NCBI GenBank assembly: GCA_964489425.1
Contig: CAZAYP010000006.1
Location: 47,802 to 111,801 of the forward strand
Reading direction: 5' to 3'
DNA length: 64,000 nt
From: an uncultured Verrucomicrobiota bacterium
Lineage (GTDB): Bacteria; Verrucomicrobiota; Kiritimatiellia; RZYC01; CAZAYP01
In this document: positions 4,122 through 55,174 of the stretch, one piece after another
Position numbering within the stretch: position 1 is the stretch's first letter
Layout: the number at the start of each line of letters is the position of its first letter
Notes under the pieces: generated by a model
Told to the model about the DNA's origin: nothing
Database searches by the model: none
Seen by the model: the letters and a program-made list of their open reading frames with translations, nothing else
Position numbers and translations under genes: made by a program

Positions 4122-4399
4122 ATAGAGACCTCCCTCTTGCCACGACTGGAACTGCCGCAATGTAACCCCGTGGGCATGCGGCGTAAAGCTGGTTTTCTCC
4201 ACCATCGCAGCCACCGGTGGACACGACTCCGGCAACCTGTCGAACCCCAATAAATGTAGGAACGGACGCACCGTCGTGTTCTGTCTGGAAGACGGCCCGA
4301 CAGGCCCGCGCCACCAGAGGAGGAGGCACACACAAGCAGAAGCCGGCCACTGACACTTGGGCTCCACTTAACCGGCGGCATGCCGGCCGCGCCGCGCTG

Positions 4400-5114: not shown

Positions 5115-5479
5115 ATCAAACACACACTCCAGTCGTTGCGAGATCGGTGGCCGATCCGCCTTTGGGACAATGACTGTCGCACAAAAAGCTGCTCCATGAA
5201 ACGAGAAACTTCAGTCAGCTTGGCGTCCGCCCTCCGAAGCTGGACATTATTCGCCGTTCAGTCCGTGCTGCGAGTGGTTAAAAAACACACAAGTGGCATT
5301 GCTGTAGCGCCAATCCCTTTGTAATCAATGTGTTTTGCTGTTTATTTAAAAGTTGGCGCGGTAGTTGCTTAGTCCAGTTCCAAAACCAAGGTCAACAATA
5401 AATAAACAGTGGTCGCATAAAGGTTGAAGACGGCTGGGTTCGGTTTAGGCCGGTCTCAGAGCCGTAGTTGAGGGGGGAG

Positions 5480-5515
5480 CCGCAGCGCCAAGGCAACTTG
5501 GCGCTGCGGTCTTTT
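5480..5515 (+). terminator. Rho-independent-type terminator hairpin on the plus strand, with no annotated gene upstream
   Basis: Perfect 13-bp stem ccgcagcgccaag / cttggcgctgcgg (5480-5492 and 5497-5509) with loop gcaa, followed by tcttttg. On the minus strand the stem is followed by ctcccccc, so it looks plus-strand specific. Confidence 0.5.
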
Positions 5516-5706: not shown

Positions 5707-5796
5707 AATTCAAATGCTGAATTCAGGTTTATAGATCCCGGGCCGAATTTGTCGAAACGGTTTACTTTGTCGGGTGCCAGGTGTAATTTTGATCTT

Positions 5797-8700
5797 ATGT
5801 TTCCTGCGTGGCGCATGTTCGTGTTCGGAGCTGGTGTAACGGCCGTGGCCGGGTGGGTCGCGGCTGCGGAAATTCACCCGGGACCCGCATCCCGATCCAC
5901 GCCGCTGACCATTTCGGAAATCATGTACCATCCCACCGCGCGCGCGGATGGGCGAGATCTGGAGTTCGTCGAGATCTTCAACACCGAGCCGTTCCCGCGG
6001 TCCCTGGCCGGATATAAGCTGGCCGGGGATGTCAGCTTCGACTTTCCCACCAACGCCATCCTGGGGGCGCGGGCGTACCTGGTTCTGGCCGCGGTGCCGG
6101 ACGATGTGCGGGCGGTGTACGGCGCCACCAATGTGCTCGGCGCCTACACGGGCCGACTGTCGAACAGTTCCGGCGCGCTGCGGCTGGAAACCCAGGCCGG
6201 CGCGTGCTTGCTGGAAGCTGAGTTTGACTCGGAGGATCCCTGGCCGGCGGCCGCGGACGGGGGCGGGTGCTCGCTCGTGCTGGCCGAGGGGTCCTACGGC
6301 GCCGCTGACTGCCGCGCGTACGCGCCATCGTACCAGCGCGGCGGGTCGCCCGGCCGTGGCGAGCCGGCGGCGGTCGGCGCGGCGAGCGTGGTCATCAACG
6401 AGCTCCTGACCCACACGGACCTGCCGCTGGTGGATTACGCGGAGCTCTACAACGCGGCCACCACGAGCGTGGACTGCTCCGGCATGGTGTTGACCGATGA
6501 CCCGGCAACCAACAAGTACCGGATCCCTGCCGCCACGGTGCTGGCGCCGGGCGGGTTCCTGGTGCTGGAGGAGGCCACGCTGGGATTCGGCTTGAGTGCC
6601 AACGGCGAAAGCCTGTTCCTGTTTTCGGCCAACACCAGCAACGTGCTGGACGCCGTCAAGTACGGCGGCCAGCAGAACGGCACGGCCTGTGGCCGGTACC
6701 CGGACGGCGCGGAGCGGCTGCGCCCCCTGGCCGCGCGCACGCCCGGCACGACCAACGCGGCGTTCCGGCAGGAGTCGGTCGTGATCAACGAGATCATGTT
6801 CAACCCGCCGGACGGCGACGCGGATGGCGAGTACATCGAGCTGCACAACCAGGGCGTGGCGGACGTGGGCCTGGGCGGCTGGCGCCTGGCCGGCGGCGTG
6901 GAGCTGGTCATCCCCACCGGCACGGTCCTGGCCGCGGGCGGGTACCTGGTGCTGGCCAACAAGGCCGCGCACCTGATCGGCCACTACGCGCACCTGAACG
7001 CGGGCAACTGCATCGGCGACTACTCCGGCACGCTGTCCGACCGCGGCGAGGTCGTCCGCCTGCTGGCGCCCGACGACCCCAACCTGCCCGACGACCTCTG
7101 CCAGTACGAGGTGGACCGCGTGGTGTACTTCGACGGCGGTTCCGGGCGCGAGTACGCGGACGGCGGGGGCAGCAGCCTGGAGCTTACCGACCCGCGCGCG
7201 GACAACGAGATCCCAATCAACTGGGCCGCCAGCGACGAATCGGCCAAGGGCCGGTGGATCACCAACGACATCACCGGCGTGCTGGACAACGGCATGCTGC
7301 CGCCGTCCACGAGCATCAACAACGTCAGCCTGATCCTGCCGCACGGCGGCGAGTGCCAGGTGGACGACGTGGCGGTGTATTACCAGTACGTCAACCGGGT
7401 GCGCAACCCGGACTTCGGCACCGGGACCAACTACTGGCAGCTGCTGGGCAACCACGAGCGCACCCGGCGCGAAGCCGACAGCCAGGGCAGCGGCTACGGG
7501 CTGCACCTGCGCGCGTCCGGTCCGGGCGACACGCGGGTGAACCGCTGCATTGGCGCGCTCTCGGTCTCGCTGCCGGCGGGCGGCACGGTGCGGCTGCGCT
7601 GCCGGGCGCGGTGGCTGGCCGGCAGCCCGGAGCTGGTCATGTGGCTGCGCGGCGGTTACCTCGACGCCCACGTCACGCTGCCCGTGCCCGACAACCTGGG
7701 CACCCCCGGGCAGGCCAACAGCCGGCGCGTGGTCAACCCCGGGCCCGCCATCTACGATGTCCGCCACACGCCCGGCCTGCCCGCGGCCGGCGCGCCGGTC
7801 GTGGTGCTGGCGCGCGCCAGTGACCCGGACGGCGTCGCCGCGGTCGACCTGCGCTACCGCATCGATCCCGCCGCCGGGTACACGACCGTGGCCATGGCCC
7901 GCGATGGGCAGGGCCGCTACGTGGCGCAGCTGCCCGGCCAGGCCCAGGGCGCCCGGGCGGCGTTTTACATCCTGGCGCGGGACGCCGCGGCGGCCTGCGC
8001 CACGAACACGTTCCCGGCCGCTGCCCCGACCAACGAGGCCGTGGTCGGGTTCGGCCTGGCCCGGACCGGCACGGACATCGACCAGGTCGCCGCCTGGATG
8101 ACCACGGCCCGCATGGCCGCGTGGCAGGGCCGTAGTTCCCTCAGCGACGAGCCGCTGCCCTGCACCCTGGTCTGCGGCGAGCGCATCGTATACGACGCCG
8201 CCATCCGGTTCCGCGGCAGCGTGTTCGTGCGCGGCGCCTACGGCGACCCGGCCACCAACGCCGCCTCCTACTGCGTGGACCTGCCGCACGACAACCGCAT
8301 GCTGGACAGCGATGAGCTCACCCTCGACTGGCAGGAGCCCAGCCGCGACAACACGTTCCAGCGCGAGCGCGCCGCCTTGTGGGTTGCGGAGCGCCTCGGC
8401 CTGCCCGCGTTCCACAAGCGCTACGTCACCGTGGACCTCAACGGAATCCGCCGCGCCACCGTGTACAGCGACTCCCAGGAGATCAGCGCCGACTACATCC
8501 GCAGCCGTTACCCCGACGCGGACGCCGGCCACCTCCACAAGATCAACGACTGGTTCGAGCTCAACGACGCGTTCAGCCCCATCGAGGGCGACTTCGTCAA
8601 CCGCGACGGCAGCCTGATCGACTACACCAGCAGCGGCGCCAAGAAAGACGCCGCCTACCGCTGGCGCTGGGAAAAACGGACCACCACCGGATACCAGGCG

Positions 8701-11523
8701 GACATGACCCCGCTGTACGCCCTCGTGGATGCCGCCAACCTGTCCGGCACCGACCTGGTGCGCGAGATGCAGCACCACGCCGACCTGGAGCAGTGGCTGG
8801 GCGTGGTGATGTTCCGCCACCTGGTGGGCGACTGGGACAGCTTCGGCTACAACCGCGGCAAGAACATGCTGGCGTACCTGCCGCCCGGCGGCCGCTGGAA
8901 CCTGTTGAACTGGGACGTGGACTTCTGTCTCGGCGCCGACATGGGCGGGAGCGAGTGGGACGACCCGTTTATCGTGGACTCCGCGCGCATGCCGCGCATG
9001 GCCGCGATCCTGGCGGCCGGCCCGTTCCGCCGCCAGGCATGGCAATGGCTGGACCGCGCCGTGACCGGCCCGTTCCGGGGCGCGGCCATCAACGCGGAAC
9101 TGGACGCCGTCTACGCGGGCCTGACCGCCAACGGCCTCGCCGTGGCCTCGCCGCTGAACATAAAAACGTGGATCGAAAACCGCTATAACTACCTGCTCGG
9201 GCGCCTGAGCGACGTGAAAGACTTCGAGCTCGGGATCCGCGAATCCGATTTCTCCACCGGCCTGAACTGGACCCCGCTGTCCGGCTGGGCGCCCATCCAG
9301 TGCGCGGTGATCAAGATCAACGGCAAGCCCGCGGACATGACCTGGACCGGCGACTGCGACTGGGAAACCCGCGTCTGGCTGACCAACGGGCTCAATATCG
9401 TCACCGTCCAGGGCTGCGATTCCAACGGCGCGGCGCGCGCGGGCCAGGCCGACAGCATCAACATCACCTGCACCGCGCTGGGCGCGGACCCGCGGAGCCG
9501 GCTGGTGATCAACGAGATCATGTACCACCCGCCGACCAACCGGGCCGAGTTCGTGGAACTATACAACCGCTCGTCCACTTCGGCGTTCGATCTCTACAAC
9601 TTCCGCCTGGACGGCGTGGACTGGACGTGCGACCGGGCCCAGGTGATCGCGCCGGGCGAGTTCGTGGTGGTGTGCCGCAGCCTCAACGACAGCGCGCGCG
9701 CCTACGGGCCCGGCCTCCCGCTGGCCGGGCCGTGGGCCGGCACGCTGCGCGCCGACGGCGAAACCCTCACGCTCCAGCAGCTCGACGCCACCGGCGGCGT
9801 GGCGCTGGTGGTGGACACCGTGACCTATTCCAGCAACTGGACGGCCCTGGCCAACGGGCAGGGCTGCGCGCTACAACTGATCGATGCCGCCGAGGACAAT
9901 GACCGGGTGGGCAACTGGACCGTCGACCCCGGCGCGCGCTGCACCCCGGGCCGGACCAACTCCGTGGCCAGCGATCTGCCGGCGTTCCCGCCGCTCTGGA
10001 TCAACGAGGTCCAGCCGGACAACCGCGCGACCCTCGCCGACAACCACGGGGATTTCGATCCGTGGCTCGAGATTTGCAACACCTCCAACGCGGTCCAGGA
10101 CCTGTCCGGGTACTGCCTGACCGATGACCTGGCCGTGCCCGCCAAGTGGGCGTTCCCCGCGGGCGCCGCGGTGACCAACGCCGGGTTCAAGCTGGTCTGG
10201 GCGGATAACGAGCCGGGCGAGTCCACGGCCACGGAATACCATGCCGGGTTCCGCCTCGCCACGGCCGGGGGCCAGGTGGCCCTGATCAGCACCAACGGCG
10301 GGCGCTACATCATCCTCGATCTGTTCGCGTACCCGGCCGCGGTCCCGGCCGACCAATCCTATGGCGATTTCCCGGACAGCCAGGCCCACGACCGCCGCAT
10401 TTTCCATTACCCAAGCCCCGGCGCGACCAACAACAACGCCGCTCCCACCGCCCGCATTTACCTCAACGAGTGGCTGGCTAAAAACAACACCAGCATCGTC
10501 GATCCGGCCACGGGCACGCGCGCCGACTGGTTCGAGCTGTACAACGACCAGGACTATGCCGTGGACATCACCGGCTACGCGCTCAGCGACACGCCGGCCG
10601 TGCCGTTCCAGTTTGTCATCAGCGGCAGCACGGAGCTGCAGCCGCGCGAGTTCCGCCTGGTCTGGGCCGACGACACCAGCGCCAACGCCTGGGGCACCAA
10701 CGATCTCCACGTGCCGTTCAAGCTCAGCACCTCCGGCGAAACCCTGCTGCTGTCCGCGCCCGGCGGCCAGGTCGTGGATACGGTCACGTTCGGCGCCCAG
10801 GCCGACGACGTATCCCAGGGCCGGTACCCGGACGGGGCGGGCACCCTGGTCGCGCTGGCGGCGCGCTCGCCACGCGCGAGCAACGTGACCAACCACCAAT
10901 ACACCCTGACTGCCACGGCGGGCGCCAACGGCCGCATCGCCCCCGCCGGCGTCCAGGCCGTGGCCGGTGGCGGCAGCGCGGTCTTCGTGATCACCGCGGA
11001 TCGCTACTACGTGATCCGCGATATCCAGACCAACGGCGCAAGCGTGGGCGCCCCCTTGGGCATCCCGTGCCGGACCTGCACCTGGGCTGCCGTGAGCGCC
11101 GACGGCGCCATCGCCGCCACGTTCCGCGCCGTCACCGCCACCAACGGCACGCCCCAGTGGTGGCTGGTGCAGTACGGCCTGACCAACGCCGACCTCGATG
11201 CCGACGCGCTGGACGATCCGGATCGGGACGGGTACCCGACCTGGAAGGAGCACGTCGCCGGGTCCAGCCCGGTGAATGCCGACTCCCTGTGGGCGGTGAA
11301 CGGGAGCCGCGATGCGGGCGCGGCGATGTTTTCGTTGTCCTGGCCCAGCCTGGCCGGACGCACCTACAGCCTGCACACTGCCACCAACCTGGCCGACGGG
11401 TTTGTCCGGCTCCCGGAAAATCTCCCCGCCAACCCCCCGGTGAACGTGTACTCCATGCCGGTGAGCAATTACGTGGCGCGCTACTTCCACCTCGGCGTTA
11501 CCATGGATCCGGATGAAGACTGA
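5797..11523 (+). CDS. Secreted CotH-family atypical kinase with six lamin-tail domains (LTD)
   Basis: The track ORF start at 5749 is a TTG. The first ATG at 5797 gives the signal-like N-terminus MFPAWRMFVFGAGVTAVAGWVAAAE. Six LTD units begin ISEIMYHP..EFVEIFN, VINELLTH..YAELYN, VINEIMFNP..EYIELHN, VINEIMYHP..EFVELYN, WINEVQPD..PWLEICN and YLNEWLAKN..DWFELYN. The central CotH core includes FQRERAALWVAERLGLP and GKNMLAYLPPGGRWNLLNWDVDFCLG. A DPDRDGYPTWKE motif lies near the C-terminus. Confidence 0.85.
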   Translation: MFPAWRMFVFGAGVTAVAGWVAAAEIHPGPASRSTPLTISEIMYHPTARADGRDLEFVEIFNTEPFPRSLAGYKLAGDVSFDFPTNAILGARAYLVLAAVPDDVRAVYGATNVLGAYTGRLSNSSGALRLETQAGACLLEAEFDSEDPWPAAADGGGCSLVLAEGSYGAADCRAYAPSYQRGGSPGRGEPAAVGAASVVINELLTHTDLPLVDYAELYNAATTSVDCSGMVLTDDPATNKYRIPAATVLAPGGFLVLEEATLGFGLSANGESLFLFSANTSNVLDAVKYGGQQNGTACGRYPDGAERLRPLAARTPGTTNAAFRQESVVINEIMFNPPDGDADGEYIELHNQGVADVGLGGWRLAGGVELVIPTGTVLAAGGYLVLANKAAHLIGHYAHLNAGNCIGDYSGTLSDRGEVVRLLAPDDPNLPDDLCQYEVDRVVYFDGGSGREYADGGGSSLELTDPRADNEIPINWAASDESAKGRWITNDITGVLDNGMLPPSTSINNVSLILPHGGECQVDDVAVYYQYVNRVRNPDFGTGTNYWQLLGNHERTRREADSQGSGYGLHLRASGPGDTRVNRCIGALSVSLPAGGTVRLRCRARWLAGSPELVMWLRGGYLDAHVTLPVPDNLGTPGQANSRRVVNPGPAIYDVRHTPGLPAAGAPVVVLARASDPDGVAAVDLRYRIDPAAGYTTVAMARDGQGRYVAQLPGQAQGARAAFYILARDAAAACATNTFPAAAPTNEAVVGFGLARTGTDIDQVAAWMTTARMAAWQGRSSLSDEPLPCTLVCGERIVYDAAIRFRGSVFVRGAYGDPATNAASYCVDLPHDNRMLDSDELTLDWQEPSRDNTFQRERAALWVAERLGLPAFHKRYVTVDLNGIRRATVYSDSQEISADYIRSRYPDADAGHLHKINDWFELNDAFSPIEGDFVNRDGSLIDYTSSGAKKDAAYRWRWEKRTTTGYQADMTPLYALVDAANLSGTDLVREMQHHADLEQWLGVVMFRHLVGDWDSFGYNRGKNMLAYLPPGGRWNLLNWDVDFCLGADMGGSEWDDPFIVDSARMPRMAAILAAGPFRRQAWQWLDRAVTGPFRGAAINAELDAVYAGLTANGLAVASPLNIKTWIENRYNYLLGRLSDVKDFELGIRESDFSTGLNWTPLSGWAPIQCAVIKINGKPADMTWTGDCDWETRVWLTNGLNIVTVQGCDSNGAARAGQADSINITCTALGADPRSRLVINEIMYHPPTNRAEFVELYNRSSTSAFDLYNFRLDGVDWTCDRAQVIAPGEFVVVCRSLNDSARAYGPGLPLAGPWAGTLRADGETLTLQQLDATGGVALVVDTVTYSSNWTALANGQGCALQLIDAAEDNDRVGNWTVDPGARCTPGRTNSVASDLPAFPPLWINEVQPDNRATLADNHGDFDPWLEICNTSNAVQDLSGYCLTDDLAVPAKWAFPAGAAVTNAGFKLVWADNEPGESTATEYHAGFRLATAGGQVALISTNGGRYIILDLFAYPAAVPADQSYGDFPDSQAHDRRIFHYPSPGATNNNAAPTARIYLNEWLAKNNTSIVDPATGTRADWFELYNDQDYAVDITGYALSDTPAVPFQFVISGSTELQPREFRLVWADDTSANAWGTNDLHVPFKLSTSGETLLLSAPGGQVVDTVTFGAQADDVSQGRYPDGAGTLVALAARSPRASNVTNHQYTLTATAGANGRIAPAGVQAVAGGGSAVFVITADRYYVIRDIQTNGASVGAPLGIPCRTCTWAAVSADGAIAATFRAVTATNGTPQWWLVQYGLTNADLDADALDDPDRDGYPTWKEHVAGSSPVNADSLWAVNGSRDAGAAMFSLSWPSLAGRTYSLHTATNLADGFVRLPENLPANPPVNVYSMPVSNYVARYFHLGVTMDPDED

Positions 11524-12238
11524 ACGGTGCCTCCCGGCCGTCTGGACCGCGGTTCTGGCCGCGGCGCTGCCGCTGGCCGCCGCCGCCGGGGGCGACCTGC
11601 TCGCCTACTGGGATTTCGGCGCCACGGCCGCCAAGTACACGGAAACCTGCACGGTCCAGCGCGTGACGTTCGCCGCGCTGGCGCTGACCGCTAACGCCGG
11701 CAGCTTCAAGGACCCCAACGGCAAGAACGGCGTGGCCTACACCGACCCCGACGGCGTCACCCACGCCGGCGGCCAGGCCGCCGCCCTGGACGAAGCCATC
11801 GAGAATGCCGGCACGCTCGACGTGCGCCTGGACGGCCGCGGGCGGCAGCTGTCCGAGGTGCGCTGGGACGCGTTCACCGACGACGCCGGCGACGCGCGCG
11901 GGCCCAAGACCTACGACCTGTCCTACAGCGTGGATGGCGGCGTGCACTGGATCCCCCTGGCCCGCGATGCGCCCTTCGTGCGCGACGGCAGCAAAACCAA
12001 TTATTACCCTTACTCCTACAGCCTGACCAACCACGCTGCCTTGCGCAACGCCGCCGAGGTCCGCCTGCTGATCCACAACCTCGCCGGCGGCACGGCCGGC
12101 GCCTGCGGGTTCGACAACGTCATGGTCGCCGGCTGGCCCGAAAATCCCGATGACCTGCTGCTGTTCCTGCCCGCCATCCTGGCCCGGCCGGCCACCAACG
12201 CCGCGGGCACGCGAGCCGGACATGGACGCGGCCTTTGA
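11513..12238 (+). CDS. Hypothetical secreted protein (signal peptide, probably a beta-sandwich)
   Basis: The N-terminus MKTERCLPAVWTAVLAAALPLAAAAGG is signal-peptide-like. The ATG overlaps the CotH stop (11521-11523) and the stop (12236-12238) overlaps the VTC start. The tail ..PENPDDLLLFLPAILARP.. is hydrophobic. I recognise no family. Codon usage matches the neighbouring genes. Confidence 0.6.
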   Translation: MKTERCLPAVWTAVLAAALPLAAAAGGDLLAYWDFGATAAKYTETCTVQRVTFAALALTANAGSFKDPNGKNGVAYTDPDGVTHAGGQAAALDEAIENAGTLDVRLDGRGRQLSEVRWDAFTDDAGDARGPKTYDLSYSVDGGVHWIPLARDAPFVRDGSKTNYYPYSYSLTNHAALRNAAEVRLLIHNLAGGTAGACGFDNVMVAGWPENPDDLLLFLPAILARPATNAAGTRAGHGRGL

Positions 12239-13019
12239 GATCATGATGGAGCGGCTGGAGGCCAAGTACCTGGTCTCGCCCCAGCAGGTGCCCGCGATCC
12301 GCGAATACATCAAGCCGTTCTGCGAGCAGGACAAGAACAGCCGGCGGTCGCTGGACGGGTACGTGATCACCACGCTGCAGCTCGATACGCCCAACTTCGC
12401 GCTCCACATGGCCAAGCCCGATAACGCGCTCACCCGTTTCAAACTGCGGGTGCGCACGTACGGTCTGGATGGCAAAGCCCCGGTGTTCCTGGAAGTGAAG
12501 CGCAAGTTCCGCGGCTCGGTGATCAAAACCCGGGCCGCCGTGCCTCCGGACCGTTGGGGCCCGGACCTGCTGCGGCAGACCGCCACGGACCTGACCTTCC
12601 GCTCGACCACGGAAACGGCTGCGTTCTGCGAGTTCCTGCGCCTGGCGCGGGAGACCGGCGCCCGGCCCGCCGTGCGCATCCGCTACCACCGCGAATCTTT
12701 TTTTGGCCTGGCCGACCGCTACTCGCGGCTGACCCTCGACTCCCGCCTGCGGTTCCAGCGTGCCGACGACTGGTCCGTGCTGGGCGGCAGCGCCTGGCAC
12801 GCCCTGGACTCCAACGCCAGCCAGGGCAAGGGGCACGCCTACTCGGGCGTGGTCCTGGAACTCAAGGCGCTGGTGGAGCCGCCGCAGTGGATGATGGGGC
12901 TGGTGGAATTCTTCGAGCTTGAACGCGTCGGCCACTGCAAGTATTCAATGGCCGTGCAACAGGAGGCTTGGGACCTGGGCGTGATCGAAGATCGCAAGGA
13001 CTGGGTATGGGGCCTCTAG
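12222..13019 (+). CDS. VTC-domain protein (triphosphate-tunnel / polyphosphate-polymerase-like domain)
   Basis: The N-terminus MDAAFEIMMERLEAKYLVSPQQ has the E-x-K-Y start typical of bacterial VTC/TTM proteins. RFKLRVRTY...VFLEVKRK basic strands follow. The track start at 12150 is further upstream, but the ATG at 12222 fits the domain start. Confidence 0.8.
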   Translation: MDAAFEIMMERLEAKYLVSPQQVPAIREYIKPFCEQDKNSRRSLDGYVITTLQLDTPNFALHMAKPDNALTRFKLRVRTYGLDGKAPVFLEVKRKFRGSVIKTRAAVPPDRWGPDLLRQTATDLTFRSTTETAAFCEFLRLARETGARPAVRIRYHRESFFGLADRYSRLTLDSRLRFQRADDWSVLGGSAWHALDSNASQGKGHAYSGVVLELKALVEPPQWMMGLVEFFELERVGHCKYSMAVQQEAWDLGVIEDRKDWVWGL

Positions 13020-13049: not shown

Positions 13050-13730
13050 ATGGATTTCGCAACTGTTTTTGAATCAGCGCGCATCATGGGGGTGGTGGAC
13101 ATCCTCTGCGCCATGCTCGCGGCGTTCGTCCTGTGCATGGGGCACGCGGCCGTGTACCGCTGGACGTTCCAGGGGTTCACCTACTCCCGGGCCTACGTGC
13201 ACGCCATGATCCTCGGCGGCATGGTCACCGCCATGCTGATCATGGCCATCGGCAACAACCTCGCCCGCGGGCTGGGCATCCTGGGCACCCTGGCGGTGAT
13301 CCGTTTCCGCACGCCGATCCGCGACCCGCGCGACATGATCTTCCTGTTCGGGTGCCTGGCCACCGGCATTGCCTGCGGCGCCACGGTGTACGCGGTGGCG
13401 GCCATCGGCTCGGTGTGCGTGGACGCGGCCGCCCTGTTCCTGCACTTTTCGCCCTTCGCCTCGCGCCGCAACTACGAGGGCCTGCTGCGCTTCGTGGCCG
13501 CGCCGCACGACACGAACCCCGCCGCCGCGGAGGAACTCATGGCGCGCTACTGCCGCAGCTACACCCTGGTGGCCATGCGCGAGTCCGCCCAGGGCGAGGC
13601 CAACGAGTACGCCTACCACGTGCGTCTGGTGGATCCGGCGTACCGCCAGGACCTGCTGGAAGGCGTCCGCAAGCTGCCGGGCATCACCGACTCCGCCCTG
13701 CTCATGCACCGCACCACCGTGGAGCTCTGA
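13050..13730 (+). CDS. DUF4956-family membrane protein
   Basis: The N-terminal half is hydrophobic with 3-4 probable TM helices (VVDILCAMLAAFVLCMGHAAV, AMILGGMVTAMLIMAI, MIFLFGCLATGIACGATVYAVAAIGSV). It contains the conserved-looking GILGTLAVIRFRTPIRDPRDM and a soluble C-terminal domain. It lies next to a VTC-domain gene, as is usual for this family (from memory). Confidence 0.8.
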   Translation: MDFATVFESARIMGVVDILCAMLAAFVLCMGHAAVYRWTFQGFTYSRAYVHAMILGGMVTAMLIMAIGNNLARGLGILGTLAVIRFRTPIRDPRDMIFLFGCLATGIACGATVYAVAAIGSVCVDAAALFLHFSPFASRRNYEGLLRFVAAPHDTNPAAAEELMARYCRSYTLVAMRESAQGEANEYAYHVRLVDPAYRQDLLEGVRKLPGITDSALLMHRTTVEL

Positions 13731-14911
13731 TGCGCCTGACCCCGCCCGCGCCGCATCCCCACCACCACCTGCCGTGGCGCCTGCGCCTCCGCTCGGGCTG
13801 GCCGCTGCTGGTCTGGCTGGCGGCGGCGATCGCCGTGTACGTTCTGGTCTGGCGCGACCGCGACTGGCTGCTGGGCGTGGAAATCCACGGCATCGTCGGC
13901 CGCGAGACGATCATCGTGGCGCCCGAGGAAACCGCCCGCATCCAGCGCATCCTGGTGGCCGCCGGCCAGCACGTCACCAACAACCAGCCGCTGGTCGAGC
14001 TGGACACCGCGTCCATCGAGTACCAGCTCGCCGACAGCCTGCTGGCCGCCCAGCGCACGGCCCAGACCATCCAGGACCGCCGCCTGGGCCTGCAGGAAAA
14101 CCTGGCCCGGCGCAACGAATACGTGGCCGATCTCGAGGCCCGCCTGGGCGAGGCCCGCCTGGAGCAGGCCGCCGCCCAGGCGGAGCTGGAGCGCCTGCAG
14201 ATCGAGCGCCAGGAGCGGCAAAAACAGTTTGCCCAGGGCCTGCTGGACGCGCTGGGCCGCGATGAACCGCTCGCGCGGCTGTCCGAGCTGGAGCAGGCCG
14301 GGGCGGCGCGCCAGGACCTGATCCGGCTCTACGCGGCGCAACTGGAAACCGCCCGGCGCCAGGCCGCCGCCACCGCCGCCACCCTCGAGCGCAGCCGGCA
14401 ACAGGACCAGGACCCGGCCGCGATCGACGCCATGCTCCAGGACATTGCCCGCGAAACCCAACGCTACCGCGACAGCTACACCTTGCGCTCGCCGTGCAAC
14501 GGGATCGTGTCCGAGGTGCGCAGCGAGCCGGGCGAGGTCGTGGACCGCACCCGCACGGTGATGCGCATCGTGCCGGAATCGTTCAGCACCATCGTGGCGC
14601 TCATCCCCGAAAGCCGCAGCACGCTCTTTGCGGTGGGCGACCGGGTGTACGTCAGCGCGATCAACTGCCGCGAGCCGGGCCGGGTGGGCCTGACGGCCAC
14701 CATCGATTCGCTGGCGCCCGAGGTGCGGGTCGAGGCGGCCATGCTCAACCTGGCGGGCCGCCAGGTCCCCATGCGCACGCGGCGCGCCATGCTGCGGATC
14801 GACGATCCGGCCGCCAGCCACCTCATCGCCGGCGAAGTGGTCGAGGTGTCGCGCAAGGCCACGCGGCCATCCCTGGCCGGCTGGCTGCGCGGGGACCAGG
14901 ACCGGCCATGA
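13730..14911 (+). CDS. HlyD-family periplasmic adaptor (membrane fusion protein)
   Basis: The ATG at 13730 overlaps the DUF4956 TGA. There is one N-terminal TM helix (WPLLVWLAAAIAVYVLVW). A lipoyl-like hairpin (IVAPEETARIQRILVAAGQHVTNNQPLVELD ... LRSPCNGIVSEVRSEPGEVV) flanks a long coiled coil (LEARLGEARLEQAAAQAELERLQIERQERQ). Confidence 0.8.
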   Translation: MRLTPPAPHPHHHLPWRLRLRSGWPLLVWLAAAIAVYVLVWRDRDWLLGVEIHGIVGRETIIVAPEETARIQRILVAAGQHVTNNQPLVELDTASIEYQLADSLLAAQRTAQTIQDRRLGLQENLARRNEYVADLEARLGEARLEQAAAQAELERLQIERQERQKQFAQGLLDALGRDEPLARLSELEQAGAARQDLIRLYAAQLETARRQAAATAATLERSRQQDQDPAAIDAMLQDIARETQRYRDSYTLRSPCNGIVSEVRSEPGEVVDRTRTVMRIVPESFSTIVALIPESRSTLFAVGDRVYVSAINCREPGRVGLTATIDSLAPEVRVEAAMLNLAGRQVPMRTRRAMLRIDDPAASHLIAGEVVEVSRKATRPSLAGWLRGDQDRP

Positions 14912-16611
14912 GCGGCCGCGCCGCCCGCGCAGTCCGTACGGCCGTGCTCCTGGCCGGGCTGGCGGGCCTGGCCGGCGCCTGCGCCCGCGGCCCGCGCACG
15001 TTCCCGGCGCCGCCGGACGTGGTCGTGACCCCGGCCGAGATCGCGGCCGCCGTGGACGAAGAAACCTGCGCCACCCCGCGCGCGGCGATCAATGCCGCCC
15101 TGCTCCAGAACCCCCGCATCCGCGCCCGCGCGCGGGATGTGCGCCAGGCCGCGGCGCGCGCCGGCATGGCCGGCGATATCCGCGCCCCGGAGATCCAGAT
15201 CGGGCTGCGCGGCGCCGATGCCGACGGCGAGGCCCGCGGCCGGGAATCCGCCACGCGCACCGGGCGCGCCCGTGAGCTCGGCGTCCAGACCGAGGAAGAC
15301 ATCTATCCCGACTACCGCGAGTACCGCGGCACCCGGCACAGCGTGCGCCAGTCCCAGTCGACCCAGCAGAGCACCCGATCAGAGTACGGATGGGAACACC
15401 TCGACGACCGCGGCTGGGAGATCGGCCTGCGCCTGTTCCCGCCCAACCCCTGGGAATACCGGGCCGAGGTCTCGGAGGCCGCGGCGCGGCTGCACGTGGC
15501 CGAGGCGCGGCTGCGCGAGGAGCAACTGGACCTGGCGCGCGACGCCGCCCTGGCCGCGTCCGACCTGGCCCACGCCCGCGCCGAACTCGAGGCGCTGCGC
15601 CGCCTGGAACGGCTGTGTGTTGACCAGGCCCGGCGCGCCGCCGCCATGCCCATGGCCGACCGGGCGGCCATGCTGCGGCGCGAGCTGGACGTGCAGTCGC
15701 GCATCGCCCGGGTCGAACGGCGCATCTGCCAGGTCACCGCCGAGCTGGAGCTGCTCGGCGGCCGGCGCGTGGACCCGGACGCGTTCCGCCCCGACTGGAA
15801 CTGGTTGCCCGCGACCAACACGGACGCCGTGGCGCTGCGCCCGCTGCTGGCCGAAGCCGCCACGCGCCGGCCCGATGTGGCCCTGGCGTTCTGGCAGGCG
15901 CGCGAGCTGCAGGCCGAAATGCGCCTGGCCCAATCCGCATCCATCCCCTGGCTGCGGCAGGTTGAAGTCGCTTACGGCACGGAGCGGCGGGAATCGCGCG
16001 GCGGCGGCACGGCCAACCAGTCCGCGTACGAAACCACCACGGACGCCGGCGGGGCCTACACCGATTATGCCGACGGCCACCGCCGCATTGACCGCGAAAC
16101 CGCCAGCCAGCGGTCCTGGTCGCAGGAGTCCGAATCCGGCACCTACGACGGCACGCGGGACACGGACGAGTGGCTGGTCCAGGCCGCGGTCAGCCTCCCG
16201 GTGTTCAACTGGCTGGCGGACGATTACTCCACCGCCCGCCACGCCGTGGGCGAGGCCTGGAAAGACGTGGACGACAGCCTGGCCGCGGCGCGGCGCGACC
16301 TGCTGGCCCACGTGCGCGCCCTGCGCCAGGCCGACACCGCTTGCCGCACCACCGAGGCGCGCCTCATGCCGCCGGCACGTCGGCTGTCGGAGCAGCTCAA
16401 CGCCCTGCAGAAAAACGGCCTGCTCTCGCCCGCGGAGAGCATCCAGCTCTCCGGCCAGGTGCTGGATATCGCGCTGGACTGCCTCGCCGCGCGGCGCGCG
16501 CTGCTGGACGCGCGCATCCGGCTGTGGATTGCCTGCGGCGCGCCGCTGGCCGCAGACCTGGCCGGCGCCGGCGATGGAGCGCCCGCCGCCGCGCCGGTGG
16601 CGCCACCGTAG
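14908..16611 (+). CDS. TolC-like outer-membrane efflux channel (OMF family), divergent
   Basis: The start is an ATGA overlap with the adaptor stop. The signal peptide ends ..LLAGLAGLAGACA (possible lipobox). Two helical repeats resemble TolC coiled coils (NPRIRARARDVRQAAAR...; RRPDVALAFWQARELQAEMRLAQ...; LSPAESIQLSGQVLDIALDCLAARRALLDARIRLW). Two unusually polar inserts are present. Confidence 0.7.
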   Translation: MSGRAARAVRTAVLLAGLAGLAGACARGPRTFPAPPDVVVTPAEIAAAVDEETCATPRAAINAALLQNPRIRARARDVRQAAARAGMAGDIRAPEIQIGLRGADADGEARGRESATRTGRARELGVQTEEDIYPDYREYRGTRHSVRQSQSTQQSTRSEYGWEHLDDRGWEIGLRLFPPNPWEYRAEVSEAAARLHVAEARLREEQLDLARDAALAASDLAHARAELEALRRLERLCVDQARRAAAMPMADRAAMLRRELDVQSRIARVERRICQVTAELELLGGRRVDPDAFRPDWNWLPATNTDAVALRPLLAEAATRRPDVALAFWQARELQAEMRLAQSASIPWLRQVEVAYGTERRESRGGGTANQSAYETTTDAGGAYTDYADGHRRIDRETASQRSWSQESESGTYDGTRDTDEWLVQAAVSLPVFNWLADDYSTARHAVGEAWKDVDDSLAAARRDLLAHVRALRQADTACRTTEARLMPPARRLSEQLNALQKNGLLSPAESIQLSGQVLDIALDCLAARRALLDARIRLWIACGAPLAADLAGAGDGAPAAAPVAPP

Positions 16612-17055
16612 CGCGGCACCCGTTCCCCGTCATCCGTAGTTGTAGCCACGTCGCTGTGCCGACGTGTCTGGCAGCTGGAACGCTATCGGGAGTTGCAGAA
16701 TGATGGTCCATTATCGGCGCTGACAGAGCGGTGCCTCCATCGGCGCGGTCACTATTCATCTGGTGGATGGCGGCGCTCCGTCGACGCCGTCTGCCGGATA
16801 TTTCGGATCATTATTTTGCAAAACCATATATATTCTCGCGCCAAGCCGCCAAGAAGGCGGTGGGAGTATGGGGCGACTGGCAAGATGTTTATCTTTGCCG
16901 ATCAGCGTCATGTGCGATCCTTGTGCCACCCCGGAACCCGAATCATGTGATGAAACTGCCTTGTTATCCCGGGAAATCCTATGCACCCTGCTGGTGGGCA
17001 GGTATAAACAGGATGGTTGCCGGGTTGGATTGCGATCGAGAGGAACGGGTGGAAT

Positions 17056-17187
17056 GTGACCGGGGAAACGAGCTTGGAACCAATCAGCGAGCTAGAAACG
17101 GCGGTTCTAACACTGCGCGGGGTTAAGGTTCTGCTTGACGCCGATCTGGCCCGCATTTATGGGGTTCCGACCACGTTGTTGAACTAG
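17056..17187 (+). pseudogene. Truncated ORF6N/KilA-N-type DNA-binding domain remnant
   Basis: The hand-read frame gives V..ETSLEPISELETAVLTLRGVKVLLDADLARIYGVPTTLLN*. It matches the N-terminal I..LRG.KV(M/L)LD.DLA.(L/I)YGV signature of ORF6N domain proteins. It stops after about 43 codons, where full-length members continue. It lies in a low-GC non-coding stretch. Confidence 0.45.
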
Positions 17188-17708
17188 CCGGCCAGCCCGA
17201 GGATCCGCGCCTGCCGGGCCGGGTGGTTGAGCGCGGCGAGGCCGCGGTCCGGCCGCCGCGACTGCAGGCGCACCAAGGCGGCGCGCAGGGCCCGCGACTC
17301 TGGTGACTGCGCCGGTTGTTTCTGGCGGGCAGTTTTACGCGCGCGGATCCGGCGCATGGCGGCCTCCGGGAAGAAAAAAGACGTCGGACGGCATTAAACC
17401 TTGCCTTGCGGAGCTCGTCGCCTGTCGCCCGACGTCAAAATATTTATAGAGGCGGTTCCCACCGCCAAGGCGCGACAAAACGCGCGCCGCAAAAGAGTTT
17501 TCATGATCCGATCCCGTACCCCACGTGACCAGCCGCCACCCCGGCAACCGGTCAACACGCGTGTTCTTAGAACATATCGCGTCTGATTGTCACAATATAT
17601 TTTGTGTTTTTTAGTTTTTCTCGCGGAGGCACGGAGCGCGCGGAGAAGAAGAGGAACTGTAATGGGCGCTCGGGCGGGCCGCCCGCCATCGCCACCGGGC
17701 AAATAGGA

Positions 17709-22006: not shown

Positions 22007-25000
22007 CTATTCTTGCAGCAGAATCAGCCAATCCAGGCTGGCCGCGAAGGCGCCCGGCCAGCCCTCGGCGGGACCGGCTTCGCCGACGCTGGGACCGACG
22101 GCATTGGTCGCGCCAACCCAGTACCAATAGTGGTTCGTGAGGCTCGCGGAGCCGTCGCGGTAGGTGGTCGCGGCCAGCGGGCCGCCCAGGGGCGTGGCGT
22201 GGGCGCGGTTGGTGTCGACGCCGCGCAGCAGCAGGTAGGCCGCGGCCTTGTTGACCGGGGCCCACGAGACATCGACATAGCCGGCCTGCGTGCCAGTGGT
22301 GGCTTGAATCCAGGCCGGCGCGGGCGGAACCACGGCCACCACGTAAGTAGCCGCAGTGTTGGTGGTGGCGCCGGCGGACAGCGTCACCGGCTGTAGCGCG
22401 GGCGACTGCCAGCCGTCCAGCGCCAGGAACACCTGGGTGTAGCTGCCGACCGGCGCGGTGCAGGCGGCTCCGCTGGCCAGCCAGTTGGTGTCAGCCAGGC
22501 CCGCCAGGCGCCAGCGGGCGCCGTCGCTCACGGCGCCGGGCGGCTGCAACACAGCCACCACGGTGCCGGTTGGGATCGGCGCCGCGGAGACGACGATGGT
22601 AGTTTCGCCCGTGGCAGAGCCGGCGAAGTTGGCCGCCACCACGCGGACGGTCCAGACCCCAACGGCATCGAACCGGAACGTGGCGGGCGTCAGGCCCTGG
22701 CCTGCCGCGGGCGGCGGGCTCCACGTGAACGCAAGAGGCGGGGTGGCGTTGGTCGGCATCCAGGCGGCGGCGAACGCCACCTCGGCGTTGACCACGGCCG
22801 TGGGCGGCCCAAGCGGCATCACGGCGACCACGGGAACCGGCTGGGGAACGGGCGGGTTGCCCGCCAAAAACGGAGCGGCAAACTCCGACGAACTGGAGAG
22901 AAACTCCGTGTTGGTTTCGGTCATGTTGACGGTAAGGTAAACGCCGTTGGTGAAGGGTTCGAAGCCCGTCATGACAGAATTGAATCCGCCGATGCCGTCG
23001 GGGCCGGTCATGCCCGCGCCCTGGCCGAGCGGCACATGGGCCCAGGCGCCATATTGATTGGTCTGGTAGGCGAAATAGAAATCCAGCAGGTAAAGGCGGC
23101 TGGGCTTGCCGACGATCATTCCGGCCACGGTCTGGTTGGTGGCCGTCACGCTCATGATGACCGGCGCCTTGATGCCCTCATTGGGCTGGTTGGTCGCGGA
23201 GGGCGCATTTGTGGCCAGGAAAATCGATTGCAGCGCGTTGGCGTAAATCCGGTTGTTCATGACCGAGATGCGCGAGCCGGTCCAGATGGCCACGCCGTTG
23301 CCGTTGTTGCGGGCAATGACGTTCGCGCCAACGATGCGGTTGCGGTCGCCGCCGCGCAGGTGCACGCCGTCCCCGGCGTTGGCAAGATCCTGGCCGTTGA
23401 TGTCGGACGTGCCGATCATGTTGTGGATGATCTGGTTCTGATCGCTGGCCGGCCCCGCGAGTTGGATGCCGGCGGCGCCGTTGCCGCCAATGCAGTTGTT
23501 AACGATTTGGGATAGCCTTGAATTCGTGTACAGGATGCCGCAATGGCTGTTGCCCAAGACCGTGGCTTTGTCCATGGACACGCCGATCTGGTTGCCGATA
23601 ATGATAAAATCCGTGCTTTCGAGGGCGGCGACACCGTGGCCGGCGTTATGGACGATCACGTTGCCATAGGCCTCGTTGGTGAACCCGATCATGTTGAAGG
23701 GCGTACCAACCAGCCGGATTCCGTCTTGCTGGTTGCCGTGGTTGCCGCCACTGAGGGTGGTGCCGACCGTATTGCCCATGAACACGTTTTGTTGAGCGGT
23801 AGCGCCTTCGATCAGCGCCCCGCAGCCCGCGTTGTGGCCGATGGCGTTGCCGTTGGAAACGATCAGGCCCCCCACAATGTTGCCAGGGGCGTTGGTAATG
23901 CGAATGCCGTGGCCCTGGTTGCCCAGCGCGGTGAAGTCGGTCTTGAATCCAACGTAGTTGCCCATGACCACATTGCCTTGCGAGAGCGGACCTTCGATGA
24001 CCATGCCATCGCCCAGGTTGCCGCCGATGAAATTGCCGACGCCCGCCAGGCCGGCGCCGATGACGTTCGAGGCGGTATTCACGATCCGCACCCCGGCGCC
24101 GCCGTTGGGCACCGCGCCAGCGCCAGTCTTGTTCAGTCCGATGAGGCAACCGAGCACCTTGGCCCCTTCGCAGGCGGTCGGGGGCAGCGCGCCTTGAATG
24201 TGGATACCGTCACCGGCGTTGCCGGCGATCACTGGCGCGCGGCCAAACCCCATGCCGATAAAAACATTCGTGCAGGTTTCAACTAAAATGCCGTGGCCCT
24301 TGTTGGTCGCTGCCGAGAGCCCGTCGAGCGCCAGCCCAATGGAGTTGCCGAGGATCTGGCCATCGGGCAGCGAATACAACGCCAGCGCGTTGGAGCCGCT
24401 GCCGCCAATGACATTGTAGGCGGTCGATGTCGCGCCCCCGAAGATCAGGTATTCATCCCCCTCGAAGAATACGCCCTGGCCCCGGTTTCCCAGCAACCGG
24501 CCGGCGGGATCCCATCCCACCAGGTTCGCTTGCACCTGGCAGTCGATCGAGGCAAACGAGGCGATGCCGACCCGGTTGCCGGCGATAAAGTTGGGCTGGT
24601 TCGTCAAGCCGACCCTGGTGTCGCCCGCATACTCCATGAGGATGCCGTAGTCGGCGTTGGTGATCACCATGCCGGCGGCGTTGGTGGCGCAGCCGATCAC
24701 GTTGTTGAGAATGTAATGGCCCACCGCGTAATCGCGCAACAACCACGAATTGTTGACGTGAATGCCCGCGTAACTGGCCCCGCCGATGGCATTGCCCCGC
24801 AGTACGCCGACATAGCTGTCCAGGCTGTTTTGAATCTCAATGCCCGTCACCATGGTCGTGGATACGAAAGTTGTAAAAGGATTGAACCCAATGATGTTGC
24901 CATCCACCCGGTTGCGGAGACCCATGCCATAGGCCGCCAAGCCGTACATGCCGACGCCCACCACGCCATCCACGATATTCGCTTCTTCCGGTTGCGCGCC

Positions 25001-27034: not shown

Positions 27035-27053
27035 GTGGTTCTCCCTTTAACGT

Positions 27054-27797
27054 TTAATCTGCGGAACAGGATCCCGGCGGGCCCGGATCCGTGGCGTCCA
27101 TGGGCTCCGGCAGCAAGCCCAGGGCGCGCAGGGCTTCCAGCGCCGCGGCCACCTGCGCCGCCTGCTTGGAGGGCCCGTGGCCCGCCCCCAGGACGCTCTG
27201 GGCGCGCAGCACCTCGGCCGTGTACTGGCGATCGTGGGGCGGGCCGCGCTCCTCTTTCATCCGGTACTGCGGCTCGGTTTTCCAGGTTTTCTGGAAGTGT
27301 TCCTGGAGCGCGCCCTTGGGATTGGCCAGATCCGGAGCAACGACCAGGCGGTCCAGGATCGGCGCAAACCGCGCCATGAACAGGCGGCGCACAGCCTTCA
27401 TGCCGCCATCCAGGTACAGGGCGCCGAGAATGGACTCGAGGGCATCGGCCAGGTTGGACGGGCGATCCGCACCGCCGCTTTGGAACTCGCCGCGGCCCAG
27501 GCGCAGATAAGGGCCCAAGCCCAGGTCCCGGGCCAGTTCCGCCAGGGTCTGGTCATTGGTTACCCGGCTGCGCAGGCGGGTTAACTCGCCCTCGGGCGTG
27601 CCCTTGAACCGCTTGAACAGGTAGTCGGCGGCCACGAGGCCCAGGGTGGCATCCCCCAAAAATTCCAGGCGTTGGTTGTCCGCCGGCAACCGCTCCTCGA
27701 ACCGGGCGGACGGATGGGTCAACGCTTTTTCCAGCAGCCCGCGGCGCCGGAAACAGTGGCCCAGCGCGGATTCCAGGATGGCGAGGTCGGGGCTCAT
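27054..27797 (-). CDS. rnc: Ribonuclease III
   Basis: Contains the NQRLEFLGDATLGLVAADYLF RNase III signature. ADALESILGALYLDGG and a C-terminal dsRBD (PKGALQEHFQK...YRMKEERGPPHDRQYTAEV) are also present. Confidence 0.95.
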   Translation of the reverse strand: MSPDLAILESALGHCFRRRGLLEKALTHPSARFEERLPADNQRLEFLGDATLGLVAADYLFKRFKGTPEGELTRLRSRVTNDQTLAELARDLGLGPYLRLGRGEFQSGGADRPSNLADALESILGALYLDGGMKAVRRLFMARFAPILDRLVVAPDLANPKGALQEHFQKTWKTEPQYRMKEERGPPHDRQYTAEVLRAQSVLGAGHGPSKQAAQVAAALEALRALGLLPEPMDATDPGPPGSCSAD

Positions 27798-28681
27798 GCG
27801 CGGGGGTGGTACTTGGCGTGGACGGACTTGAGGCGCGAGCTGTCCACGTGGGTGTAGACCTGGGTGGTGGCAATGTCGGCGTGGCCCAGCATCTCCTGGA
27901 TCACGCGCAGCGGCGCGTTGTTGGCCAACAGATGGCTGGCGAACGAGTGGCGCAAGGTGTGGGGCGTGACATTTTTCAGGATCCCCGCCAGCCGGGCATA
28001 CTGCTTGATGAGCTTCCAGAGGCCCTGGCGCGAAAACGGTTTCTTGCGGTACGTGAGAAACACGGCGCGGATCTCCGCGGGCGGGGCCGCCGGCGCGCGC
28101 ACCTCGTCCAGGTACCGGTGCAGGGCGGTGGCCGCGGCCTGGCCCAGCGGCACCACCCGCTCCTTGCGGCCCTTGCCAAAGCAGCGGATGTAGCCGGCAT
28201 CAAAGTGCAGGTCTTCCAGCGTCAGCCGGGCCAGCTCCGAAACGCGCAGGCCCGCGCCGTACAAGGTTTCCAGCAGGGCCCGGTCGCGCACGCCGCGGGC
28301 AGTAGCCTGGTCCGGCGCGGCCAGCAGGCGGTCCACTTCCTTGATCGAAAGGGTGTCGGGCAGGATTTTCCACAGCCGCGGCGAGTCCATGGTCTGCGTG
28401 ACGTTGCGCGCCAGCAGGCCCTCGTTTTGCAGGTAGCGGAAGAACATCTTGATCGCCACCAGGCGGCGCGACAGCGAGTTGACGCACAGGCCGCGCGCCT
28501 TTTCGCTCATCAGGAAATCGAGGATCTGGGCGCGGGTGACCTTGTTGGCCGCGTCCACCTGGCGCTCGCGCAAAAAGCCGGCGAACGCGGTCAGGTCCCG
28601 GCCGTAGGCCAGGCGCGTGTTGTTGCTCAGCCCGCGCTCCAGCCCCAGGTGGTCGAGAAACTGTTCAATCAGGACTTGCAT
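27794..28681 (-). CDS. xerD: Tyrosine recombinase XerD
   Basis: Contains LERGLSNNTRLAYGRDL, LYGAGLRVSEL, GKGRKERVVPL, HTLRHSFASHLL and LGHADIATTQVYTH, and ends HPRA as in E. coli XerD. Its stop overlaps the rnc ATG (ATGA). Confidence 0.9.
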   Translation of the reverse strand: MQVLIEQFLDHLGLERGLSNNTRLAYGRDLTAFAGFLRERQVDAANKVTRAQILDFLMSEKARGLCVNSLSRRLVAIKMFFRYLQNEGLLARNVTQTMDSPRLWKILPDTLSIKEVDRLLAAPDQATARGVRDRALLETLYGAGLRVSELARLTLEDLHFDAGYIRCFGKGRKERVVPLGQAAATALHRYLDEVRAPAAPPAEIRAVFLTYRKKPFSRQGLWKLIKQYARLAGILKNVTPHTLRHSFASHLLANNAPLRVIQEMLGHADIATTQVYTHVDSSRLKSVHAKYHPRA

Positions 28682-28732
28682 CGGCCGGGCTGTGCCTGCC
28701 GCGCCGGCGCCGGGCGGCAGTGGCCGGGAGAT

Positions 28733-55156: not shown

Positions 55157-55174
55157 CCGGGTTCCTTTCAGCCG

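Follow-up and report, generated by a model that had tools for sequence, protein, structure and literature searches.

A conserved VTC-DUF4956-adaptor-TolC cassette as a candidate polyphosphate exporter in Verrucomicrobiota

Which inner-membrane protein serves a periplasmic adaptor and a TolC-like outer-membrane factor (OMF) when no transporter gene stands beside them? The question is raised by a 64,000-nucleotide stretch of contig CAZAYP010000006.1 (hereafter the window), from an uncultured freshwater Verrucomicrobiota bacterium, in which the genes for adaptor and OMF directly follow those for a VTC-domain protein and a DUF4956 membrane protein. The four genes form a real and conserved cassette that is unexplained by any characterised system. 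In our preferred reading, for which we put the chances at about even, they would encode a machine that exports polyphosphate across the whole envelope, driven by its polymerase, with DUF4956 taking the place of a pump. We consider it probable that adaptor and OMF have DUF4956 as their functional partner in the inner membrane.

The four-gene cassette and its recurrence

The cassette comprises the following genes:

12222..13019 (+), VTC-domain protein, 265 amino acids (aa), PF09359
13050..13730 (+), DUF4956 inner-membrane protein, 226 aa, PF16316
13730..14911 (+), periplasmic adaptor (membrane fusion protein), 393 aa, EmrA-like, HlyD_3 and HlyD_D23
14908..16611 (+), TolC/OprM-type OMF, 567 aa, with a lipoprotein-type leader (LAGAC), OEP PF02321

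The region has a G+C content of ~68-74% and its raw lists of open reading frames (ORFs) are crowded; genes in the window were called by combining reading frame, the sequence context of starts and stops, and family searches. The four belong to one co-directional string on the plus strand, which runs from a giant gene with lamin-tail (LTD) and CotH domains through a gene for a 241-aa protein to VTC, DUF4956, adaptor, and OMF. An independent public gene call, made on a second assembly of this sequence, predicts the same products of 265, 226, and 393 aa. A preliminary description of the locus had reported the order DUF4956-adaptor-TolC-like with overlapping stops and starts, and this is borne out: The DUF4956 stop and the adaptor ATG have one base in common in TGATG (13728-13732), and the OMF start overlaps the adaptor stop in ATGA (14908-14911).

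Conservation of the DUF4956 protein is unusually high. Its best 120 relatives in the databases are 226-229 aa long and 55-74% identical, and those with names come from Spartobacteria/Verrucomicrobiota, Lentisphaerae, and Kiritimatiellae. In the genome and assembly contexts of other members, the four genes keep their order unchanged among wholly different neighbors. On a Lentisphaerae contig, the cassette is flanked by EF-P and EamA genes on one side and an NTP-transferase gene on the other; on a Kiritimatiellae contig, DciA and a sigma-54 activator lie upstream and LTD and CotH giants downstream; and on another contig, the cassette stands between dapA/dapB/panB upstream and genes for thioredoxin and Rnf downstream.

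A metagenome scan added 80 loci, for a total of ~85 related loci, and hidden Markov models built from the four cassette alignments were searched against every ORF of each locus. All counts refer to loci with enough sequence to evaluate. The VTC gene lies directly upstream of DUF4956 in 63 of 65 loci, and the adaptor gene directly downstream in 58 of 63. The OMF gene comes next in 37 of 43 loci, that is, in 37 of the 39 that have an adaptor. When the start codon nearest the DUF4956 stop is used in each locus, the adaptor begins between -3 and +28 nucleotides from that stop in 54 loci. Adjacency in 58 of 63 loci with unrelated flanks is far beyond chance. Near-duplicate loci inflate these counts only slightly: The 85 loci contain 78 distinct DUF4956 sequences (79 including that of the window). 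Whether the DUF4956-adaptor adjacency recurs in other genomes of the Planctomycetes-Verrucomicrobia-Chlamydiae group had been proposed as a test in the preliminary description; it does, in Verrucomicrobiota/Spartobacteria, Lentisphaerae, and Kiritimatiellae.

The carriers come from freshwater and other environmental metagenomes. Across classes, the four proteins diverge at different rates, with identities of 48-74% in the slowly evolving VTC and DUF4956 proteins and of 22-31% in the fast-evolving adaptor and OMF. Individual loci depart from the standard layout. The adaptor of L062 is truncated, and at L067 a membrane H+-pyrophosphatase (9847-12372; PF03030, 4.5e-181) follows VTC-DUF4956-adaptor in the place usually taken by the OMF. 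On a tree of DUF4956 sequences, the five loci that have no adaptor fall into four distinct and scattered lineages, with four label changes, and two of these loci lie at the ends of long branches. This scatter suggests that the four-gene state is ancestral and has been secondarily uncoupled by adaptor loss.

The wider family is large. When 1.84 billion cluster representatives were searched in full with HMMER, 4,999 DUF4956 clusters at 50% identity were found, 1,606 of them at 1e-10. Five distant members were looked up for their genomic context, and one of their contigs was too short to judge. At L092 (31% identity) the order is VTC-DUF4956-HlyD with overlapping codons; at L089 (38% identity) it is OEP-VTC-DUF4956; and at L090 (29% identity) a CotH gene adjoins VTC-DUF4956. 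That linkage to adaptor or OMF is kept while gene order changes points to function rather than mere inheritance.

The inner-membrane position

The preliminary description had found no pump in the operon or its flanks and had placed DUF4956 in the vacant position. For the window, we chose large ORFs over the whole 64 kb by third-position GC and length and compared them with Pfam. Among the large ORFs screened, which all exceed ~100 aa and lie outside a gap at 16.6-17.7 kb, no ABC_tran, MacB_PCD/FtsX, ACR_tran, MFS, MatE, or FUSC domain was detected, in agreement with the earlier statement. The multi-pass membrane proteins that this screen did find are a Na/Pi cotransporter-PhoU fusion (42916-45234, minus strand) and a TMEM260-like/TPR protein. 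For the related loci, Walker-A and LSGGQ patterns, counts of membrane helices, and Pfam checks revealed no pump conserved beside the cassette in ~85 loci. The earlier premise, limited to ABC, RND, and MFS pumps, was slightly too narrow: AaeB-type (ArAE) transporters likewise pair with adaptors. With this class included, none of the transporters that mark tripartite efflux or type I secretion (ABC, RND, MFS, or ArAE, encoded with the adaptor) was found in the operon or in the screened ORFs of the window, and none is conserved in the ~85 loci.

Three matches in the related loci were considered as hidden pumps and rejected. An ABC-like match at L047 is UvrA. Real ABC neighbors occur at only two loci, L018 and L071, and both are lineage-specific. 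The ABC protein of L018 belongs to a complete MacA-MacB-OEP set, upstream of the cassette, that has its own adaptor and OMF. The MacB/FtsX permease and ATPase upstream at L071 are absent from its nearest relatives L079, L057, and L076. The arrangement at L018 (646-7107) may be recorded separately: DUF4956-adaptor-OMF is preceded there by a MatE gene and by the complete MacA-MacB-OEP system.

The structure of the adaptor is informative about the kind of partner it may have. By Pfam it matches HlyD_3 (3e-11) and HlyD_D23. Its AlphaFold2 (AF2) model, with a predicted local distance difference test (pLDDT) score of 88.5, has a membrane helix (residues 24-48), a lipoyl domain, a two-helix hairpin of ~75 residues per helix, and a beta-barrel, and it has no membrane-proximal domain. 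The best Foldseek match is EmrA (4tko, 3e-18), together with EmrAB-TolC (8zar/8zal), and MacA comes next. A direct search for homologs gave only nine matches, as coiled-coil words swamp the index, and sequences derived from the related loci were used instead. In these, the membrane helix and juxtamembrane segment (R19, W24-P25, W29) match the lipoyl domain in conservation, and the coiled coil is more variable. The family consensus R-x3-L-x6-[D/S] at 162/166/173 lies near the modeled hairpin turn (~168-174); the window's own adaptor has no match to this pattern. Adaptors without a membrane-proximal domain, the EmrA type, serve inner-membrane partners that barely protrude into the periplasm.

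DUF4956, as modeled, would fit as such a partner. The protein matches PF16316 (4.2e-10; 40.0 bits, gathering cut-off 30.6), and its AF2 model (pLDDT 78) places five helices within residues 15-133, ahead of a beta-alpha-beta-beta-alpha-beta domain at 140-223. Basic residues are concentrated in loops 1-2 and 3-4 (the latter RFRTPIRDPRD, with four Arg) and after helix 5, while loops 2-3 and 4-5 consist of two to three uncharged residues. From this charge distribution, the protein probably has its N-terminus outside and its C-terminus inside, with nearly no periplasmic exposure, which the EmrA-type adaptor would match. The family has an invariant core, GNNLARGxGILGTLA..RF..xRD..D, with R73 within helix 3 and a cluster of arginines at the cytoplasmic face. 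By analogy with the basic residues that line the yeast VTC channel (PMC9911596), these arginines are candidate contacts for a polyanion. The C-terminal domain was the only part of the model to be matched by Foldseek, to ACT folds that include the C-terminal domains of MgtC (7qa5, 2lqj), and is likely a ligand-sensing regulator.

Five membrane helices and a C-terminal ACT-like domain are also the architecture of the MgtC/SapB/YhiD family, and many DUF4956 relatives are labeled "YhiD" by JGI. At the level of sequence, DUF4956 lies far below the Pfam MgtC threshold (PF02308, 12.5 bits vs. 31.4, E = 0.2), and, unlike the cassette protein, MgtC has no link to VTC, adaptors, or OMFs. The architectural likeness lends some color to a second explanation, in which adaptor and OMF serve a conventional pump encoded elsewhere in the genome, and VTC-DUF4956 is a cytoplasmic or membrane pair of the MgtC kind, for polyphosphate or phosphate regulation, that is merely co-regulated with them. 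Adaptor genes as a rule adjoin the genes of their transporters (EmrAB, MacAB, HlyBD), and this counts against an unlinked pump, as does the constant, coupled neighbor of the adaptor being DUF4956 in 58 of 63 loci. An unlinked pump would be compatible with the screens, which cover the window and ~85 loci rather than whole genomes, and with the VTC-DUF4956 pairs that exist without an adaptor (5 of 63 loci; bioRxiv 10.1101/768473). The MacB/FtsX-type ABC pair just upstream at L071, which has no adaptor of its own, could be taken as an instance of such a pump, but it is missing from the closest relatives, and the MacAB of L018 brings its own adaptor and OMF. On balance we think it improbable that a pump elsewhere accounts for the cassette.

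The outer-membrane end of the cassette is clearer. The OMF matches OEP (PF02321) at 4.8e-8 (33.5 bits, cut-off 22), as do its orthologs. A pattern search found a lipobox-like motif in 20 of 39 orthologs, from which family members would usually be lipoproteins. Polar inserts of 50-70 residues, rich in Ser, Thr, Gln, Arg, and Glu, occur at ~100-165 and ~355-420, equivalent points of the two OEP repeats; they are present in orthologs of 500-730 aa and absent from those of ~400 aa. Judged from the topology of TolC, they are probably extracellular loops.

The assignment of DUF4956 as inner-membrane partner, put forward in the preliminary description, is thus supported in part. Recurrence bears it out in large part, and the EmrA type of the adaptor and the absence of a conserved pump in cis also speak for it. 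The adaptor, for its part, is only a secondary partner: Because it is absent in five of 63 loci and in Gram-positive bacteria, DUF4956 must be regarded as the partner of VTC first and of the adaptor second.

The VTC enzyme and the nature of the cargo

The preliminary description named no cargo. By analogy with yeast VTC, the likely cargo is polyphosphate. The window protein matches the VTC family (PF09359, 3.4e-32) over 232 of 235 model positions and is assigned by Pfam to VTC and not to CYTH. A profile of six VTC orthologs from three classes matches the structures of yeast Vtc4 (5e-6), and the Vtc4 residues K200, R264, R266, K281, Y359, R361, and E426 align with K15, R76, R78, K93, Y155, R157, and E213 of the window protein. 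All seven equivalents of these catalytic and tunnel residues are invariant in the six orthologs. In yeast, the mutant R264A/R266A/E426N is inactive and was used for the structure of the VTC complex (PMC9911596). The window protein has no hydrophobic segment, and its sequence makes it a candidate polyphosphate polymerase of the cytoplasm.

Our preferred reading of the cassette as a polyphosphate exporter is also the simplest: The constant, translationally coupled neighbor of the adaptor is DUF4956 and not a transporter of a known class, the adaptor is of a type that serves partners embedded in the membrane, and DUF4956 is in turn nearly always preceded by an enzyme whose only characterized relatives polymerize phosphate and pass the chain on to a channel in the membrane. 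At L067, the H+-pyrophosphatase that stands where the OMF usually is adds a further phosphate-anhydride theme. The mechanism that we envisage is as follows. The cytoplasmic VTC enzyme, a triphosphate-tunnel polymerase like Vtc4, would synthesize polyphosphate from NTP on the cytoplasmic side of the inner membrane. An oligomer of DUF4956 would replace the ABC, RND, or MFS pump of ordinary tripartite systems; the growing chain would be taken up at its conserved, arginine-rich cytoplasmic loop and passed across the membrane. The EmrA-like adaptor, anchored beside DUF4956 through its single membrane helix, would form together with the TolC-like lipoprotein a closed duct for the polymer through periplasm and outer membrane. 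Polymerization itself would provide the drive, along with the inside-negative membrane potential, which would pull the polyanion outward; because of this added electrophoretic pull, neither a transport ATPase nor proton antiport would be needed. A drive supplied by VTC would fit the model of synthesis-coupled translocation for the yeast complex (PMC9911596).

Comparison with known systems shows where the cassette is familiar and where it is new. The yeast VTC complex (Vtc4/Vtc3/Vtc1; PDB 3G3Q, 7YTJ, 8I6V) likewise combines a triphosphate-tunnel domain of the VTC family, identical in its catalytic residues, with a small membrane protein of several helices that bears conserved arginines, and its proposed logic also couples synthesis to translocation (PMC9911596). 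Unlike in yeast, the membrane partner in the cassette is the five-helix, ACT-like DUF4956 and not a three-helix VTC/DUF202 domain, the enzyme is encoded apart from the membrane protein, an SPX sensor is missing, and an adaptor and outer-membrane duct are added. Pfam finds neither a three-helix VTC (DUF202-type) domain nor an SPX domain in any cassette protein. With EmrAB-TolC and MacAB-TolC, the cassette shares an adaptor fold closest to EmrA and then MacA (a long hairpin and a single membrane helix at the N-terminus, but no membrane-proximal domain), an OEP-family OMF, and an adaptor gene joined to that of the inner-membrane partner. It differs in that this partner has 226 aa and belongs to no transporter family, no MFS, ABC, RND, or ArAE transporter was found, and the cargo is presumed to be a polymer synthesized in place. 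In synthase-dependent secretion of exopolymers (cellulose Bcs, alginate, Pel), an inner-membrane polymerase drives its product through a dedicated trans-envelope route. The cassette resembles these systems in this concept only, as they use glycosyltransferase synthases, TPR scaffolds, and beta-barrel porins for organic polymers, with no adaptor-TolC pair.

The closest published relatives are found in Gram-positive bacteria, where genes for CotH, a "polyphosphate polymerase," and DUF4956 are accessory genes beside pel loci (bioRxiv 10.1101/768473; mBio PMC12345266). In this work the DUF4956 member SIR_1592 is described as an MgtC-like membrane domain joined to an ACT domain, and Pel-dependent aggregation is reduced in its mutant. 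This trio has the same VTC-DUF4956 pair and a secreted CotH protein but, in cells with a single membrane, no adaptor or OMF. The relevant papers on DUF4956 cover this trio alone. In the literature on DUF4956, on polyphosphate with TolC and VTC, and on polyphosphate export or secretion, we found no description of the four-gene cassette, so that the form linked to adaptor and OMF is undescribed as far as this literature shows. A 2026 preprint reports extracellular polyphosphate in the Bacillus cereus group that is independent of PPK and made by "an uncharacterized pathway"; its authors detect no VTC4 homolog there (bioRxiv 10.64898/2026.08.04.742738).

Several observations weigh against the export of polyphosphate by the cassette. 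Loss of Vtc4 S457/K458 marks inactive paralogs, and these two residues lie past the profile-aligned stretch; a search with the C-terminal fragment matched only unrelated proteins and no Vtc4. An invariant C239-K240-Y241 in the VTC family is a plausible equivalent, though not an established one. We found no literature showing polyphosphate synthesis by any bacterial VTC-domain protein. On the membrane side, Foldseek and sequence comparison gave no similarity between DUF4956 and the three-helix channel domain of VTC, and DUF4956 looks like MgtC, a regulator and not a channel (PMC12345266). A length-filtered search found no protein of 400 aa or more that contains this DUF4956, and the best 150 of the 4,999 DUF4956 clusters, with lengths of 111-284 aa, include no fusion to VTC or adaptor. 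Nor is synteny complete. VTC-DUF4956 stands without adaptor and OMF in five of 63 loci (L016, L035, L042, and L060/L061), where unrelated and often convergent genes follow, and in all Gram-positive cases. The sister pair L013 and L018 carries DUF4956-adaptor-OMF with no VTC gene in cis, and at the distant L091 neither VTC nor adaptor adjoins DUF4956.

Some of these points bear on the cargo and leave DUF4956 as the inner-membrane partner of a single module. The VTC protein could then hydrolyze NTP or triphosphate and in this way power or gate the export of another anion or small molecule, or it could make a different phosphorylated product. The synteny evidence applies equally to such a module, and the enzymes of the triphosphate tunnel metalloenzyme superfamily are catalytically diverse, including hydrolases and cyclases (PMC4641920), a diversity that also tells against assigning polyphosphate; the unmapped equivalent of Vtc4 K458 points the same way. 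We nevertheless regard a cargo other than polyphosphate as unlikely: The conserved residues are those of the polymerase Vtc4, the Pfam match is to VTC (3e-32) and not CYTH, and the flanks hold no conserved gene for the synthesis of another cargo.

Surroundings of the cassette and significance

The remaining features of the operon are the following:

5479..5510 (+), terminator-like hairpin with a 14-bp stem and a T tail, strong
5749..11523 (+), giant secreted protein of 1924 aa with six LTD domains and a CotH kinase domain, by Pfam
11513..12238 (+), hypothetical protein of 241 aa with a hydrophobic N-terminal leader, matching no Pfam family

The hairpin probably closes the upstream unit and marks the 5' boundary of the operon. 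A scan for sigma-70 promoters gave nothing above shuffled expectation, and almost none of the sampled words occur in the metatranscriptomes of the same samples. The 241-aa protein, encoded between the CotH giant and VTC, was considered as a fifth component and ruled out: blastp found relatives in none of the other loci, and the protein is lineage-specific and outside the conserved core.

The giant is the first gene of the operon and an accessory one (Pfam LTD 5.7e-73 over six stretches; CotH 3.2e-14). LTD giants flank the cassette in 20 related loci and CotH genes in at least four, and Pfam also gives CotH at L004. Such neighbors raise the question of whether adaptor and OMF, in the manner of type I secretion, move or anchor the LTD/CotH surface proteins, with VTC and DUF4956 as accessories. 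We consider this very improbable in spite of the adjacency in those 20 loci and the window operon, as there is no ABC exporter, the hydrophobic N-terminal leader of the giant, identified by eye, suggests export by Sec, and many loci with long flanks have the cassette and no LTD or CotH gene. If the cassette does export polyphosphate, the secreted giant may instead bind or use the polymer. A more specific form of this idea sees the cassette as a tripartite machine that has no pump, is powered by its polymerase, and is dedicated to secreting an inorganic polymer, so as to make energy-rich phosphate available outside the cell. The polyphosphate would donate phosphoryl groups to the secreted CotH kinase and lamin-tail proteins or be bound by them as a ligand. 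This form is speculative, and we hold it to be doubtful.

Very large surface proteins are abundant in the window generally. Besides the operon's giant, a secreted-type protein of 3750 aa with eight CarboxypepD_reg repeats is encoded at 29594-40846 (+), and giants of about 1680 and 1455 aa with NosD/beta-helix repeats are encoded at 22007-27046 (-) and 3-4367 (-). The ~1.1 kb 3' of the operon (16612-17700) have no convincing gene and patchy low G+C, with convergent genes beyond. Within this interval, the plus strand near 17110-17185 reads "...LRGVKVLLDADLARIYGVPTTLLN" up to a stop and by eye resembles the remnant of a phage gene of the ORF6N/KilA-N type; a tyrosine recombinase gene lies at 27794-28732 (-).

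About 26 kb from the VTC cassette, the Na+/Pi cotransporter-PhoU fusion noted above stands beside a stand-alone response-regulator receiver (45213-45704, +), and the two make up a phosphate-uptake and phosphate-sensing pair. Elsewhere in the window are genes for a CHASE2-sensor adenylate/guanylate cyclase (53018-55174, -) and a bacterial TMEM43-family protein (58463-59716, -; PF07787, 8e-90). An AAA+ chaperone of the ClpC/ClpB type, carrying Clp_N and UVR motifs (59809-62385, -), adjoins an ATP:guanido phosphotransferase, a McsB-like protein arginine kinase (62288-63640, -); this pairing is best known in Gram-positives. Among related loci, an NTP-transferase gene fused to or adjoining a GHMP- or APH-type kinase gene (MurU/AmgK-like by eye) lies convergent to the cassette at L003 (13817-15698), L060 (3043-3954), and L016 (7117-9066), loci that are otherwise different.

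If the cassette works as we propose, it would represent a new class of inner-membrane engine for tripartite envelope systems, in which polymer synthesis and membrane potential do the work of an ABC ATPase or of proton antiport. DUF4956, a family of 4,999 clusters, would gain a function, as would the VTC-domain proteins of bacteria and perhaps their CotH and LTD proteins, and the cassette would provide a concrete genetic handle on how bacteria place polyphosphate outside the cell. Should the exported polymer also serve the secreted CotH and lamin-tail proteins as a donor, these bacteria would have an extracellular phosphorylation economy and a surface store of phosphate. In freshwater and the other habitats of the carriers, exported polyphosphate could then matter for the cycling of phosphorus and metals.

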